Positions 5,773 through 56,985 of a DNA stretch of 64,000 nucleotides are shown here, in pieces. Under the pieces are notes generated by a model. That model saw nothing but the letters and a program-made list of their open reading frames with translations, was not told the DNA's origin and searched no databases. The stretch lies in the NCBI RefSeq assembly GCF_051903065.1, contig NZ_CP178438.1. One strand, given 5' to 3'. A program made the translations under genes and the position numbers. Each line of letters opens with the position of its first letter. Position 1 is the stretch's first letter. The stretch comes from Escherichia coli (GTDB taxonomy: Bacteria > Pseudomonadota > Gammaproteobacteria > Enterobacterales > Enterobacteriaceae).

Positions 5773-6601
5773 ACGCACACTCAGTCGCATCGGTTTTTAC
5801 TGCGGGCTGGCGCTGTTTCTCATCATCACGCTGTTTCCGTTTTTTGTGATGCTGATGACCTCGTTCAAGAGCGCAAAAGAGGCGATCTCGCTGCATCCTA
5901 CGCTGCTGCCACAGCAGTGGACGCTGGAGCATTACGTCGACATTTTTAACCCGATGATTTTCCCGTTTGTCGACTACTTCCGTAACAGCATGGTGGTGTC
6001 GGTGGTTTCATCCGTGGTGGTGGTATTTCTCGGTATTCTCGGGGCTTACGCGCTTTCTCGCCTGCGCTTTAAAGGTCGGATGACCATCAACGCCAGCTTT
6101 TACACGGTGTACATGTTCTCCGGCATTTTGCTGGTGGTGCCGCTGTTCAAAATTATCACCGCACTTGGCATTTACGACACCGAGATGGCGCTGATCATTA
6201 CCATGGTGACGCAAACTCTGCCCACCGCCGTGTTTATGCTGAAAAGTTACTTCGACACCATCCCTGATGAGATCGAAGAAGCGGCGATGATGGATGGCCT
6301 CAACCGTCTGCAAATCATCTTCCGTATCACCGTGCCCCTGGCGATGTCCGGGCTGATATCGGTGTTCGTCTACTGCTTTATGGTGGCGTGGAACGACTAT
6401 CTGTTTGCGTCGATTTTCCTCTCCAGCGCCAGCAATTTCACCTTACCGGTGGGCCTGAACGCGCTGTTCAGTACGCCTGATTACATCTGGGGACGGATGA
6501 TGGCGGCCTCGCTGGTGACCGCATTGCCGGTGGTGATTATGTATGCGCTTTCGGAACGTTTTATTAAGAGTGGTTTGACCGCCGGTGGCGTGAAGGGCTA
6601 A
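5759..6601 (+). CDS. ycjP: Sugar ABC transporter permease (280 aa)
   Basis: Multi-TM permease with EAAMMDG motif; start overlaps ycjO stop. Confidence 0.85.
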   Translation: MATNKRTLSRIGFYCGLALFLIITLFPFFVMLMTSFKSAKEAISLHPTLLPQQWTLEHYVDIFNPMIFPFVDYFRNSMVVSVVSSVVVVFLGILGAYALSRLRFKGRMTINASFYTVYMFSGILLVVPLFKIITALGIYDTEMALIITMVTQTLPTAVFMLKSYFDTIPDEIEEAAMMDGLNRLQIIFRITVPLAMSGLISVFVYCFMVAWNDYLFASIFLSSASNFTLPVGLNALFSTPDYIWGRMMAASLVTALPVVIMYALSERFIKSGLTAGGVKG

Positions 6602-6631
6602 AGCGGCCAGTTTCTTTACAAGGAGTTTTAC

Positions 6632-7684
6632 ATGAAAAAGTTAGTAGCCACAGCACCGCGCGTTGCTGCGCTGGTTGAGTATGAAGATCGGGCGATTTTA
6701 GCCAATGAAGTGAAGATCCGCGTGCGTTTCGGCGCACCGAAACACGGAACGGAAGTGGTCGACTTCCGCGCCGCCAGCCCGTTTATCGATGAAGACTTTA
6801 ACGGCGAGTGGCAGATGTTCACCCCGCGTCCGGCAGATGCGCCGCGCGGCATTGAGTTTGGCAAATTCCAGCTTGGCAACATGGTGGTTGGCGACATTAT
6901 CGAGTGCGGCAGCGACGTTACCGACTACGCGGTGGGCGACAGCGTATGCGGCTACGGCCCGCTCTCCGAGACGGTCATCATTAACGCAGTGAATAACTAC
7001 AAGCTGCGCAAAATGCCGCAAGGCAGCTCCTGGAAAAACGCCGTCTGTTACGACCCGGCGCAGTTTGCCATGAGCGGCGTGCGCGATGCCAACGTACGCG
7101 TAGGGGATTTTGTCGTGGTGGTAGGGCTTGGCGCGATCGGTCAAATTGCCATCCAACTGGCGAAACGCGCTGGCGCATCGGTGGTAATTGGCGTCGATCC
7201 TATCGCCCATCGCTGTGATATTGCCCGTCGCCACGGTGCTGATTTCTGCCTTAACCCCATTGGCACTGACGTAGGCAAAGAGATCAAAACGCTGACCGGC
7301 AAGCAGGGTGCCGATGTGATTATCGAAACCAGCGGTTACGCCGACGCGCTGCAATCGGCGCTGCGCGGTCTGGCCTACGGCGGCACCATCTCTTATGTCG
7401 CGTTTGCCAAACCATTTGCTGAAGGTTTTAACCTCGGACGCGAAGCGCATTTCAATAACGCCAAAATTGTTTTCTCCCGCGCGTGCAGCGAACCGAACCC
7501 GGATTATCCGCGCTGGAGCCGTAAGCGTATTGAAGAAACCTGCTGGGAACTGCTGATGAACGGTTATCTCAATTGCGAAGATTTAATCGACCCGGTAGTG
7601 ACCTTTGCCAACAGCCCGGAAAGCTACATGCAGTATGTCGATCAGCATCCGGAACAGAGCATCAAAATGGGCGTTACGTTTTAA
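6632..7684 (+). CDS. ycjQ: Zn-dependent alcohol/sugar dehydrogenase (350 aa)
   Basis: MDR-family features (GLGAIGQIAIQLAKRAGA Rossmann motif). Confidence 0.85.
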   Translation: MKKLVATAPRVAALVEYEDRAILANEVKIRVRFGAPKHGTEVVDFRAASPFIDEDFNGEWQMFTPRPADAPRGIEFGKFQLGNMVVGDIIECGSDVTDYAVGDSVCGYGPLSETVIINAVNNYKLRKMPQGSSWKNAVCYDPAQFAMSGVRDANVRVGDFVVVVGLGAIGQIAIQLAKRAGASVVIGVDPIAHRCDIARRHGADFCLNPIGTDVGKEIKTLTGKQGADVIIETSGYADALQSALRGLAYGGTISYVAFAKPFAEGFNLGREAHFNNAKIVFSRACSEPNPDYPRWSRKRIEETCWELLMNGYLNCEDLIDPVVTFANSPESYMQYVDQHPEQSIKMGVTF

Positions 7685-39086: not shown

Positions 39087-39094
39087 AACTGCAT

Positions 39095-39188
39095 AAAAAA
39101 ATAGAGTCTGTCGACATCCGCCAGACTCTACAGTACACACAGCAGTGCATCCGCGTCTTAAATCCGGCATTGTCTCCTCTGCGCCGGT
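39095..39188 (-). ncRNA. mcaS: sRNA McaS (IsrA)
   Basis: Minus-strand sequence ACCGGCGCAGAGGAGACAATGCCGGATTTAAGACGCGGATGCACTGCTGTGTGTACTGTAGAGTCTGGCGGATGTCGACAGACTCTATTTTTTT matches my memory of McaS; terminal hairpin plus T-run on the minus strand. Confidence 0.75.
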
Positions 39189-42565: not shown

Positions 42566-42687
42566 GCAGGTGAATGCAACGTCAAGCGATGGGCGTTGCG
42601 CTCCATATTGTCTTACTTCCTTTTTTGAATTACTGCATAGCACAATTGATTCGTACGACGCCGACTTTGATGAGTCGGCTTTTTTTT
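42566..42687 (+). ncRNA. fnrS: sRNA FnrS
   Basis: GCAGGTGAATGCAACGTCAAGCGATGGGCGTTGCGCTCCATATTGTCTTACTTCC… ending in hairpin gccgactttgatgagtcggc plus T7; matches my memory of FnrS and its location between zntB and dbpA. Confidence 0.8.
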
Positions 42688-47269: not shown

Positions 47270-47496
47270 TGAATAAATCCTTTAGTTATTTTATTTGCCT
47301 TTTATCCCCATTTCGGGGAGTGAAAACATCCTAAAGGAGAAGTTCAGTTAGCCGATAAATATCATTTGTTACGCCTTAAGTAAAACCTTAATCAAATAAT
47401 TCCTCTGAAATGATAATAAGTCTGGTGAATGTATCGAAGATAATACATACAAAATAAAAATTATACTTTTAATTTTCTATACGTTATTCTGCGCGG

Positions 47497-47608
47497 GTTA
47501 TATGCCTTTATTGTCACAGATTTTATTTTTTGTTGGGCCATTGCATTGCCACTGATTTTCCAACATATAAAAAGACAAGCCCGAACAGTCGTCCGGGCTT
47601 TTTTTTAG
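47497..47608 (+). ncRNA. micC: sRNA MicC
   Basis: GTTATATGCCTTTATTGTCACAGATTTTATTTT… ending in hairpin gcccgaacagtcgtccgggc plus T8; matches my memory of MicC, which lies between ompN and ydbK. Confidence 0.8.
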
Positions 47609-47634
47609 AATTGGATAATCCTTATCCAGAGCAT

Positions 47635-53425: not shown

Positions 53426-56065
53426 ATGCTGGGTAAATATAAAGCCGTTCTCGCGCTGTTATTACTGATTATTCTTGTGCCGTTGACGCTGCTGATGACG
53501 CTCGGGCTGTGGGTTCCCACGCTGGCGGGCATCTGGCTACCGCTCGGGACACGTATTGCATTAGATGAAAGTCCACGCATTACGCGTAAAGGTTTAATCA
53601 TTCCCGATCTCCGTTATCTGGTGGGAGATTGTCAGCTTGCGCATATCACCAACGCCAGCCTTTCACATCCCAGCCGCTGGTTATTGAACGTCGGCACGGT
53701 AGAACTTGATTCTGCTTGTCTGGCGAAATTGCCGCAGACGGAGCAATCGCCAGCTGCTCCAAAAACCCTTGCGCAGTGGCAGTCCATGCTGCCTAACACC
53801 TGGATCAATATCGATAAACTGATTTTTTCTCCCTGGCAGGAATGGCAGGGAAAACTCTCTCTCGCATTAACCTCTGATATCCAGCAACTGCGTTATCAGG
53901 GCGAAAAAGTTAAATTTCAAGGCCAGCTGAAAGGGCAACAACTTACAGTCAGCGAACTGGATGTCGTCGCGTTTGAAAATCAGCCGCCGGTTAAACTGGT
54001 GGGGGAATTTACTATGCCGCTCGTGCCGGATGGACTTCCTGTAAGTGGGCATGCTACTGCGACGTTAAACTTGCCGCAGGAACCGTCACTGGTGGATGCC
54101 GAGCTGGACTGGCAGGAAAATAGCGGGCAATTGATCGTGCTGGCACGGGATAACGGCGATCCGTTGCTCGATTTGCCGTGGCGAATTACTCGTCAACAAT
54201 TGACCGTAAGCGATGGTCGCTGGAGCTGGCCGTATGTAGGTTTTCCTTTGAGTGGCCGACTGGGTGTCAAAGTCGACAACTGGCAGGCAGGGCTTGAGAA
54301 CGCTCTGGTCAGCGGACGATTGAGTGTGCTGACCCAGGGGCAAGCGGGTAAGGGCAACGCGGTGCTTAATTTTGGCCCAGGAAAATTAAGCATGGATAAC
54401 AGCCAGCTGCCTCTGCAGCTGACCGGTGAAGCGAAACAGGCGGACCTCATTTTATATGCCCGTTTACCTGCGCAGGTAAGTGGAAGTCTGTCTGACCCAA
54501 CGCTGACCTTTGAGCCAGGCGCGTTACTTCGTTCAAAGGGAAGAGTCATCGATTCGCTGGACATCGATGAAATCCGCTGGCCTTTAGCGGGTGTAAAAGT
54601 CACCCAACGTGGTGTTGACGGACGTTTGCAGGCCATTTTGCAGGCGCATGAAAATGAACTGGGCGATTTCGTGCTGCATATGGATGGGCTGGCGAATGAT
54701 TTTCTCCCTGACGCTGGCCGCTGGCAGTGGCGCTACTGGGGAAAAGGGAGTTTTACACCGATGAATGCCACCTGGGATGTCGCAGGAAAAGGTGAGTGGC
54801 ATGACAGCACGATTACGCTGACCGATCTCTCCACCGGTTTCGACCAGTTACAATACGGTACGATGACGGTAGAAAAGCCGCGATTAATTCTCGACAAGCC
54901 CGTCGTCTGGGTACGTGACGCACAGCATCCCTCCTTCAGCGGCGCGCTGTCACTGGACGCCGGGCAAACGCTGTTCACTGGCGGCAGTGTGTTACCGCCA
55001 TCAACCTTAAAATTTAGCGTCGATGGGCGCGATCCGACGTATTTCCTCTTTAAAGGCGATTTACATGCTGGTGAGATTGGCCCGGTTCGGGTAAATGGTC
55101 GCTGGGACGGTATTCGTCTGCGCGGTAATGCCTGGTGGCCTAAACAATCACTGACTGTATTCCAGCCGCTGGTGCCACCCGACTGGAAGATGAACTTACG
55201 CGATGGTGAACTGTATGCTCAGGTTGCATTTTCTGCTGCGCCTGAACAAGGATTCCGCGCGGGAGGGCACGGCGTGTTGAAAGGCGGTAGTACCTGGATG
55301 CCAGATAATCAGGTGAACGGTGTCGATTTTGTCCTGCCTTTCCGTTTTGCCGATGGAGCCTGGCATCTGGGGACTCGCGGCCCCGTTACGTTGCGAATTG
55401 CCGAAGTGATTAATCTGGTGACAGCGAAAAATATTACGGCTGATTTGCAAGGGCGTTATCCGTGGACTGAAGAAGAACCCTTGCTGTTGACTGATGTTAG
55501 CGTCGATGTGTTAGGCGGTAACGTGCTGATGAAACAATTACGTATGCCGCAACATGACCCGGCGCTGTTGCGGCTGAATAATCTCTCATCCAGCGAACTG
55601 GTTAGCGCCGTCAATCCGAAACAATTCGCCATGTCCGGGGCATTTAGTGGTGCATTGCCGTTATGGCTAAACAACGAAAAATGGATAGTGAAAGATGGTT
55701 GGCTGGCAAATAGCGGGCCAATGACCTTGCGGCTGGATAAAGACACCGCAGATGCGGTGGTGAAAGACAATATGACTGCGGGTTCAGCAATTAACTGGTT
55801 GCGCTATATGGAAATTAGCCGTTCATCGACAAATATTAATTTAGATAATCTCGGTTTATTAACCATGCAGGCCAACATTTCGGGCACCAGTCGCGTCGAT
55901 GGTAAAAGCGGTACGGTAAACCTTAATTATCACCATGAAGAGAATATTTTTACGTTATGGCGCAGTTTACGCTTTGGAGATAATCTCCAGGTATGGCTGG
56001 AGCAGAATGCCCAGCTACCGGAAACTGGCTGCCCATCAGGAAAAGAGTGTGAGGAAAAACAATGA
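53426..56065 (+). CDS. ydbH: AsmA-like protein YdbH (879 aa)
   Basis: N-terminal membrane anchor and long beta-rich periplasmic protein; followed by ynbE-ydbL. Confidence 0.85.
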   Translation: MLGKYKAVLALLLLIILVPLTLLMTLGLWVPTLAGIWLPLGTRIALDESPRITRKGLIIPDLRYLVGDCQLAHITNASLSHPSRWLLNVGTVELDSACLAKLPQTEQSPAAPKTLAQWQSMLPNTWINIDKLIFSPWQEWQGKLSLALTSDIQQLRYQGEKVKFQGQLKGQQLTVSELDVVAFENQPPVKLVGEFTMPLVPDGLPVSGHATATLNLPQEPSLVDAELDWQENSGQLIVLARDNGDPLLDLPWRITRQQLTVSDGRWSWPYVGFPLSGRLGVKVDNWQAGLENALVSGRLSVLTQGQAGKGNAVLNFGPGKLSMDNSQLPLQLTGEAKQADLILYARLPAQVSGSLSDPTLTFEPGALLRSKGRVIDSLDIDEIRWPLAGVKVTQRGVDGRLQAILQAHENELGDFVLHMDGLANDFLPDAGRWQWRYWGKGSFTPMNATWDVAGKGEWHDSTITLTDLSTGFDQLQYGTMTVEKPRLILDKPVVWVRDAQHPSFSGALSLDAGQTLFTGGSVLPPSTLKFSVDGRDPTYFLFKGDLHAGEIGPVRVNGRWDGIRLRGNAWWPKQSLTVFQPLVPPDWKMNLRDGELYAQVAFSAAPEQGFRAGGHGVLKGGSTWMPDNQVNGVDFVLPFRFADGAWHLGTRGPVTLRIAEVINLVTAKNITADLQGRYPWTEEEPLLLTDVSVDVLGGNVLMKQLRMPQHDPALLRLNNLSSSELVSAVNPKQFAMSGAFSGALPLWLNNEKWIVKDGWLANSGPMTLRLDKDTADAVVKDNMTAGSAINWLRYMEISRSSTNINLDNLGLLTMQANISGTSRVDGKSGTVNLNYHHEENIFTLWRSLRFGDNLQVWLEQNAQLPETGCPSGKECEEKQ

Positions 56066-56247
56066 AAATAGTGATAGCCGCGTTTGCGTCCTCTTTTATG
56101 TTGGTTGGTTGCACGCCTCGCATTGAAGTGGCTGCGCCGAAAGAGCCAATCACCATTAATATGAACGTTAAAATTGAGCATGAAATCATCATTAAAGCGG
56201 ATAAGGACGTTGAAGACCTGCTCAAAACCCGTAGCGATCTATTTTGA
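56062..56247 (+). CDS. ynbE: Small lipoprotein YnbE (61 aa)
   Basis: MKIVIAAFASSFMLVGC lipobox; overlaps ydbH stop. Confidence 0.8.
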   Translation: MKIVIAAFASSFMLVGCTPRIEVAAPKEPITINMNVKIEHEIIIKADKDVEDLLKTRSDLF

Positions 56248-56251
56248 GGTG

Positions 56252-56578
56252 ATGATGAAAAGAACATTACTCATAGCTGTATGGGCCATTGGCCTGATGA
56301 GCGACGGTGCAATGGCTTTAACCCTGAACGAAGCCAGAAGTCAGGGGCGGGTAGGTGAAACGCTTAACGGTTACCTGGTGGCGCTACAAACGGATGCCGA
56401 AACACAGGCATTAGTAAAAGATATTAATGAAGCTCGTAACCATAGTTACCAACAACTGGCAAAGCAAAATAATGTATCCACTAAAGAGATAGCCAAACTG
56501 GCTGGACAAAAGCTTGTTGCTCGCGCGAAGTCGGGGCAATATGTTCAGGGAGTTAATGGTAAATGGTTGCGCAAATAA
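56252..56578 (+). CDS. ydbL: Periplasmic protein YdbL (DUF1318, about 108 aa)
   Basis: Internal Met giving MMKRTLLIAVWAIGLMSDGAMA signal peptide. Confidence 0.8.
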   Translation: MMKRTLLIAVWAIGLMSDGAMALTLNEARSQGRVGETLNGYLVALQTDAETQALVKDINEARNHSYQQLAKQNNVSTKEIAKLAGQKLVARAKSGQYVQGVNGKWLRK

Positions 56579-56985
56579 ATTATAGTTGGCTACAAAATGT
56601 ATCTATTAATGATCTTTTACAGTATTTAAACTGACGTTAGCATGCTTAATTACCGTGGGTATTTCTACAAAAACCTTATATATCCTTCCCTTAAATAACA
56701 AATCATTACTAATATATATGTAATCACAAAATATATATGCAGCGTCAATGAATTATTAGTGTGTTTTTGTTTTTTGTCGTTAATTTTTAGATTGAAGTGA
56801 GTTTTTTGTGGAATATAATTCCATCAACTGTTTTTTTGTATGCTTTTACTTGCCTGATTTTAATATTGATTTTGTGAATTATATAAGCATTTCTTTATTG
56901 CTTACTTCACTATGAATATTTACTACGATTTATCTTCAAATTCTGCATGGCTTGTTACGCACGGTCTAGATCTAAGGAATTTTAT

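Follow-up and report, generated by a model that had tools for sequence, protein, structure and literature searches.

The AT-rich spacer upstream of ydbA in an O157:H7-type haplotype of Escherichia coli: a candidate promoter and leader region and probable H-NS target

The ydbL-ydbA spacer and its genomic surroundings

The 64 kb of Escherichia coli DNA analyzed here (hereafter the window) represent an O157:H7-type haplotype, in which ydbL directly abuts ydbA. The gene order is ldhA (minus strand), ydbH, ynbE, ydbL, spacer, ydbA and pdxI, according to the PGAP annotation of strain 23CRST027, which is 99.97% identical to the window over 50 kb. The window lacks the feaR-feaB-tynA-paaZ-paaA..K-paaX-paaY island, by which ydbL and ydbA are set apart in K-12. 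The features at the locus are as follows:

56255-56578, plus strand: ydbL, last gene of ydbH-ynbE-ydbL, a diverged allele with 72-81% DNA identity to K-12 (sliding identity)
56579-56985, no strand assigned: AT-rich ydbL-ydbA spacer, predicted H-NS binding/nucleation tract and ydbA regulatory region
56792-56819, plus strand: sigma-70-like core promoter, -35 TTGAAG at 56792-56797, 16-nt spacer, -10 TATAAT at 56814-56819
56826-56985, plus strand: predicted untranslated leader of about 160 nt with a T7 run and a Shine-Dalgarno sequence
56986-60738, plus strand: 5' part of ydbA, with signal peptide, proline-rich 30-bp repeats, BigA_N domain and beta-helix passenger
60739-61506, minus strand: IS1 of 768 bp inside ydbA, with the 9-bp target duplication GCCGGGACG
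61507-63627, plus strand: 3' part of ydbA, with BigA_beta domain and autotransporter barrel

The gene ydbA encodes an autotransporter of the BigA/YdbA family and is present as a deeply diverged allele, which is intact except for the recent insertion of IS1. The target duplication GCCGGGACG is perfect, with copies at 60730-60738 and 61507-61515, and the in silico excision of IS1 together with one of these copies restores a single ORF of 1954 aa, hence, the inactivation must be recent. The rejoined protein contains the Pfam domains BigA_N and BigA_beta. Between its signal peptide and BigA_N, eleven PVPPDDGGDT repeats are encoded by tandem 30-bp units (57292-57642, 11.8 copies, about 65% GC). The number of these repeats probably varies among strains, since the protein of strain 3CM, which harbors an intact ydbA of 1964 aa behind the same spacer, is 10 aa longer. 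In O157:H7 Sakai the gene corresponds to ECs2006/ECs2007 ('BigA-like' / 'BigB-like'), in an O157-like strain a stop at codon 1012 divides it, and in K-12 it is broken by IS2 and IS30. In strain CUWW06 (locus L025, about 6317-7085) an IS1 resides within the AT-rich spacer after position 316, and the rest is deleted up to mid-ydbD. With IS2 and IS30 in K-12, IS1 in the window and IS1 in CUWW06, the ydbA locus is a recurrent target of insertion sequences. Elsewhere in the window, an element of the IS3 family (IS1397) is located at approximately 14.6-16.0 kb, and the gene ycjN contains an internal stop.

A previous reading of this DNA from the sequence alone had proposed that about 400 bp of very AT-rich sequence precede ydbA and stand out from surroundings of roughly 50% GC, and both statements were confirmed. 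The positions 56579-56985 comprise the entire intergenic spacer of 407 bp, from the ydbL TAA ending at 56578 to the ydbA ATG at 56986, and this spacer has a GC content of 27.0% (73% AT; T 177, A 120, G 55, C 55) compared to 49.9% for the window. In the GC profile this value corresponds to z = -4.5 relative to all 407-bp windows. The lowest-GC 407-bp window of the 64 kb is found at 56538-56944 (26.3%), and 56538-56963 is the only block of less than 30% GC in the window that extends above about 200 bp. The neighboring genes are ordinary in their GC content (ydbA 50.8%, ydbH 52%, ydbL 45.7%). A comparison with other spacers is fairer than one with the entire window. Intergenic regions of at least 50 bp number 31 within the window, their pooled GC content is 39.8%, and among them the ydbL-ydbA spacer is the longest true spacer as well as the most AT-rich one. 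The runners-up reach 30.5-32.6% GC and are all shorter. The sRNA MicC is located in the ompN-nifJ spacer, which with 32.6% GC ranks second in AT-richness among the long spacers. The runs of A and T that had also been pointed out do exist (6 of at least 5 and 13 of at least 4), although 18% of the shuffles of the same composition reach these numbers. They are hence a by-product of the AT-richness and not a separate feature.

Candidate core promoter, leader and H-NS-related properties

A consensus scan identified TTGAAG-16-TATAAT, which matches 10 of the 12 consensus positions, as the best sigma-70-like site in the spacer. The mere number of promoter-like sites found by a simple consensus scan is not in excess (4 compared to 3.4 +/- 1.9 in shuffles). 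A plus-strand site whose -10 hexamer ends 166-169 nt before the ATG occurs in all four alleles compared (window, E. whittamii, K-12 and B2-like, with the K-12 and B2-like alleles being mutually non-independent), and shuffles put a sigma-70-like site into this interval in about 2% of the trials per allele. Hence, hexamers at the spacing of 16-18 nt that defines a sigma-70 promoter are present and conserved among the alleles. Collectively, there is reasonable evidence from sequence comparison that TTGAAG-16-TATAAT represents the genuine core promoter of ydbA. Transcription is predicted to start near 56826, which would result in a leader of approximately 160 nt.

The predicted leader includes a T7 run at 56831-56837, which is T8 in O157 according to the alignment to an O157-like strain, and the Shine-Dalgarno sequence AAGGA at 56974-56978, 7 nt ahead of the ydbA ATG, which is followed by a typical signal peptide. 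The terminator scan on the plus strand after ydbL revealed no intrinsic terminator, and it may be that the ydbH-ynbE-ydbL transcript reads into ydbA in the window haplotype. K-12 possesses a strong hairpin after ydbL that is common to the convergent feaR; a counterpart is not visible in the window haplotype (56579-56700). Another terminator-like hairpin, followed by a T-rich run, is situated about 30 nt before the ydbA ATG in the K-12-type (L004 7343-7364) and B2-like (L026 7278-7299) alleles, where the base changes between the two leader hairpins keep the pairing, and it is absent from the window allele. This leader hairpin could be an attenuator. Furthermore, the sequence GTGAATTATA (inside TTTTGTGAATTATATAAGC) at 56873-56884, about 50 nt downstream of the predicted start, is common to the window and K-12 alleles despite the background identity of only about 62%. 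This match could be coincidental, or it could represent one half of a regulator site.

Regarding the properties that are relevant for H-NS, this protein favors AT-rich and TpA-rich DNA. With its 407 bp the spacer exceeds the at least 100-200 bp of AT content far above the genome average that are expected for an H-NS-bound promoter region. TpA steps account for 13% of the spacer positions compared to 4.7% in the window. The H-NS motif TCGATAAATT was found with up to 2 mismatches at 4 sites in the spacer compared to 0.7 per 407 bp window-wide, while composition-matched shuffles contain 1.5 +/- 1.2 such near-matches and 7.7% of them reach 4. The high-affinity nucleation consensus of H-NS was reportedly described as tCGATAAATT by Lang and co-workers in 2007. 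An exact high-affinity H-NS motif was searched for in the spacer and not found.

The region had furthermore been described as curved, a claim for which our modelling gave a divided picture. The curvature was calculated with wedge models, whose implementation gave 0.56-0.61 for the phased and 0.20 for the unphased A6 control. The mean local curvature of the spacer is at the 99.4th percentile of the window, yet it equals that of composition-matched shuffles, and an initial interpretation as high curvature was therefore dropped. The maximum local curvature of 0.42 is likewise no higher than in shuffles and well under the phased A6 control. On the other side, the AA/TT periodicity of the spacer is strongest at 10.5 bp, a strength that 2.6% of the shuffles reach, and the ratio of end-to-end distance to contour length is 0.66 or 0.55 compared to 0.81 +/- 0.12 or 0.84 +/- 0.09 in shuffles, so that, depending on the model, the predicted overall bend is 1.3-3.1 SD above that of the shuffles. 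In the same wedge modelling, the spacer alleles of K-12 and E. whittamii displayed no curvature excess over shuffles. Hence, the periodicity and the overall bend speak for a curved spacer, whereas the local curvature and the other two alleles do not, and any predicted curvature is no more than modest and confined to the window allele.

Divergence, distribution and relatives of the spacer

Among 5426 complete E. coli genomes, 374 carry the spacer of the window with an identity of 95-100%; these are mainly O157:H7 and O55:H7 strains plus scattered others. This distribution agrees with the finding that ECs2006/2007 occur in all eight O157 strains tested and not in non-O157 EHEC or K-12 (Ogura et al. 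2007, PMC2323221). The K-12-type upstream region was found in 2444 genomes, with identities that fall into two bands, one of at least 99% and one of about 83%.

The identity between the window and K-12 amounts to 98-99% in ydbH up to about 55600 and to about 94% up to 56000; from there it is 72-85% through the 3' end of ydbH, ynbE and ydbL. In the spacer, about 220 bp nearest to ydbA (from roughly 56770) can be aligned with K-12 at approximately 62% identity, and the about 190 bp nearest to ydbL (56579-56770) have no alignable counterpart in either K-12 flank. Between the YdbA proteins of the window and K-12, the N-terminal passenger is 35% identical and the C-terminal part 71%. The divergence from K-12 thus extends across ynbE, ydbL, the spacer and YdbA, and the spacer is therefore part of a deeply diverged haplotype block. 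The cliff of divergence at 55600-56578 suggests that the spacer and ydbA are included in a haplotype block that is either old or introgressed. In this regard, YdbL is 98% identical to the protein of Escherichia sp. E1V33, and this strain carries the window spacer at 99% identity.

The corresponding loci of relatives were recovered by a YdbL scan of the genome collection. E. whittamii (L006 6325-7011) has a spacer of 405 bp with 30.4% GC that is 64% identical to the window spacer, with homology beginning at 56691; it is followed by a ydbA stub of 65 aa and then by pdxI. In E. albertii (L008 5297-5523) ydbA is absent and ydbL is directly followed by pdxI. The gene feaR follows ydbL in Pseudocitrobacter, Pluralibacter and Cedecea; in Raoultella it also lies downstream of ydbL, at a distance of about 3.8 kb. 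In the B2-like strain M21816 (L026 6422-7000) ydbL is followed by fused feaR' and 'paaY remnants, a K-12-like spacer (327 bp, 28.7% GC) and an intact ydbA of about 2867 aa. This arrangement is a genuine internal deletion of the fea-tynA-paa island.

The four spacer alleles (window/O157, K-12, B2-like and E. whittamii) are approximately 62-83% alike, have a length of 327-407 bp and all fall into the range of 25-30% GC. With the curvature being modest and allele-specific, it is this comparison of alleles from which AT-richness is therefore drawn as the conserved property. The alleles, which make up at least four classes, span E. coli lineages, Escherichia sp. E1V33 and E. whittamii and have diverged by up to about 40% with a fixed promoter distance. 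It is conceivable, though we regard it as tentative and rather doubtful, that the ydbA control region is conserved in its composition and not in its sequence, and that the spacer forms one edge of an old recombining, hypervariable ynbE-ydbL-spacer-ydbA block. If true, the reading of a conserved composition would provide a case in nature for testing whether base composition, rather than specific sites, is selected by H-NS silencing.

Probable function of the spacer and comparison with known systems

The published data on the orthologous locus support an association with H-NS. By the definition of the Ozoline group, 'promoter islands' are stretches of at least 300 bp in which start sites predicted by PlatProm are dense and overlap. 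Among the 78 islands compiled in Table 1 of PMC3661553 is the K-12 paaY(+)/ydbA(+) spacer (1463061, 385 bp), and the same table marks it as H-NS-bound with reference to Kahramanoglou et al. and Oshima et al. Further islands in this table adjoin the autotransporter genes ycgV and yfaL and many fimbrial operons. Hence, the suggestion that published H-NS data should be compared for the orthologous locus led to a positive answer. The related proposal of the sequence-only reading that the region is an H-NS-silenced promoter of the adhesin type stands insofar as the spacer precedes ydbA and its K-12 counterpart is listed as bound, but it is weakened by a K-12 match of about 62% that covers only the ydbA-proximal part. 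Since the K-12 spacer has been published as H-NS-bound, H-NS silencing of the window allele is likely by analogy. In K-12, the ydbA transcript is 7.7-fold increased in an rpoZ mutant (PMC5811629), which is consistent with a normally low expression. A literature search for H-NS ChIP or hns-mutant evidence on ydbA/ECs2006/ECs2007 in O157 gave no hit.

Taking these findings together, the spacer is probably the promoter and leader region of ydbA and, through its maintained AT-richness, also a nucleation tract for H-NS by which this promoter would be silenced. The promoter and leader part of this reading is based on the anatomy of the spacer and the comparison of alleles, whereas the H-NS part is derived from the composition and the K-12 counterpart. 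According to the proposed mechanism, transcription of ydbA would start near 56826 from TTGAAG-16-TATAAT, and the extreme, evolutionarily maintained AT-richness would provide a preferred site for binding and nucleation of H-NS. H-NS filaments over the promoter would then keep ydbA silent under laboratory conditions, like other cryptic adhesin and autotransporter genes of E. coli. Binding of H-NS is expected to be confined to roughly 56.5-57.0 kb without spreading into the gene, because the body of ydbA has 50.8% GC. In the window genome, the promoter would now drive a ydbA gene broken by IS1.

The spacer might alternatively be neutral, AT-rich filler beside a decaying gene, which drifts towards an AT-biased mutational equilibrium and binds H-NS possibly only incidentally. 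The gene ydbA has indeed been lost repeatedly, by IS1 in the window, IS2/IS30 in K-12 and a stop in O157, with a 65-aa stub left in E. whittamii and no gene in E. albertii; because it is so often broken, reduced or absent, the spacer may be under little selection. Moreover, with about 62% identity the spacer sequence has diverged at least as rapidly as its flanks, and composition is sufficient to explain the A/T runs, the H-NS motif matches and the promoter-like sites. However, drift does not easily account for a GC content of 25-30% in four of four alleles, far under the 39.8% of the other window spacers, nor for the sigma-70-like site at a constant distance to the ATG in all of them, and intact ydbA genes exist behind the window spacer and behind the B2-like allele. 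We consider neutral filler unlikely. A still much smaller probability is given to the view that the spacer is the junction scar of a deletion of the feaRB-tynA-paa island or its empty non-insertion site. The island is absent, ydbL abuts ydbA, and the segment of about 190 bp at 56579-56770 lacks a counterpart in either K-12 flank; furthermore, the position of the island is old, because the adjacency of ydbL and feaR is widespread in other Enterobacteriaceae. Yet blastn and tblastn detected no feaR or paaY remnants in the spacer, and its comparison with plasmids and phages gave no match. The genuine scar in the B2-like strain also has another appearance, in that feaR' and 'paaY remnants precede a K-12-like spacer there. 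In E. whittamii the homology to the window spacer extends from 56691, and the spacer is of equal length. An island scar would at most account for the origin of the spacer and not for its composition.

It is least to be expected, and in our opinion hardly credible, that the spacer gives rise to an RNA regulator, either in cis or as an sRNA, or to a small protein similar to ynbG, or that it acts as a Dam/OxyR phase switch as known from agn43. The K-12 spacer does carry an annotated minus-strand ORF, the 21-aa ynbG, but no minus-strand ORF exists at the equivalent position in the window spacer. Small hydrophobic ORFs are present on the plus strand at 56797-56877 and 56808-56915, their hydrophobicity being due to the T-rich DNA; as conserved genes they were ruled out, because the T7/T8 difference shifts their frame in O157. 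Rfam returned no match at E <= 1 for 56000-57500, and at gathering score the only matches in the whole window were MicC, FnrS and McaS outside the spacer (47494-47614, 42566-42683 and 39093-39188, respectively). Neither the predicted leader (z = +0.37) nor the region downstream of ydbL (z = +1.61) folds with extra stability compared to shuffles. The repeat search in the spacer revealed only short AT-rich matches, which were taken as chance, and no meaningful terminal repeats. The two GATC sites at 56611 and 56969 that might suggest a phase switch are 358 bp apart and thus unclustered.

The spacer is hence best regarded as the promoter and leader region of ydbA with a probable role of H-NS, and in more general terms it is an ordinary AT-rich control region, the diverged counterpart of an already catalogued K-12 region. 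If this is true, little changes, because it adds one more AT-rich, probably H-NS-coated promoter before a cryptic and often inactivated adhesin gene. A modest value for typing and evolutionary studies results from the fact that the spacer marks the ydbA haplotype of the O157:H7/O55:H7 type, and it illustrates how AT-richness is retained across deep sequence divergence.

Among the known systems, the agn43 (flu) region resembles the spacer as an upstream control region of an E. coli autotransporter. The Dam/OxyR switch of agn43 requires three clustered GATC sites inside an OxyR site, in contrast to the two distant sites of the spacer, which speaks against a switch of this type. The H-NS-silenced regions of cryptic adhesins (ycgV, yfaL, sfm, yad, elf, yeh, yfc and fim), which are listed as H-NS-bound promoter islands (PMC3661553 Table 1), are likewise long, very AT-rich and situated upstream of adhesin genes, but they share no sequence homology with the spacer. 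Moreover, at the window locus the AT-richness is limited to the spacer and does not include the body of ydbA, unlike in these regions.

The closest counterpart is the K-12 paaY/ydbA promoter island (MG1655 1463061, 385 bp; Panyukov & Ozoline 2013, PMC3661553), which like the window spacer lies immediately upstream of ydbA. Both are similar in GC content (25% in K-12, 27% in the window) and in the distance of the sigma-70-like site to the ATG (166 nt and 167 nt, respectively), and in both cases the downstream ydbA has been inactivated by insertion sequences. Differences exist in the sequence, which is approximately 62% identical only in the part nearest to ydbA, and in the upstream neighbor, which is paaY with a terminator hairpin in K-12 and ydbL in the window. 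The small ORF ynbG and the terminator-like leader hairpin of K-12 are both missing in the window spacer, and the measured H-NS binding refers to the K-12 allele. The window spacer is positionally orthologous to the K-12 paaY/ydbA promoter island and, by analogy, would function like it, with a largely different sequence.
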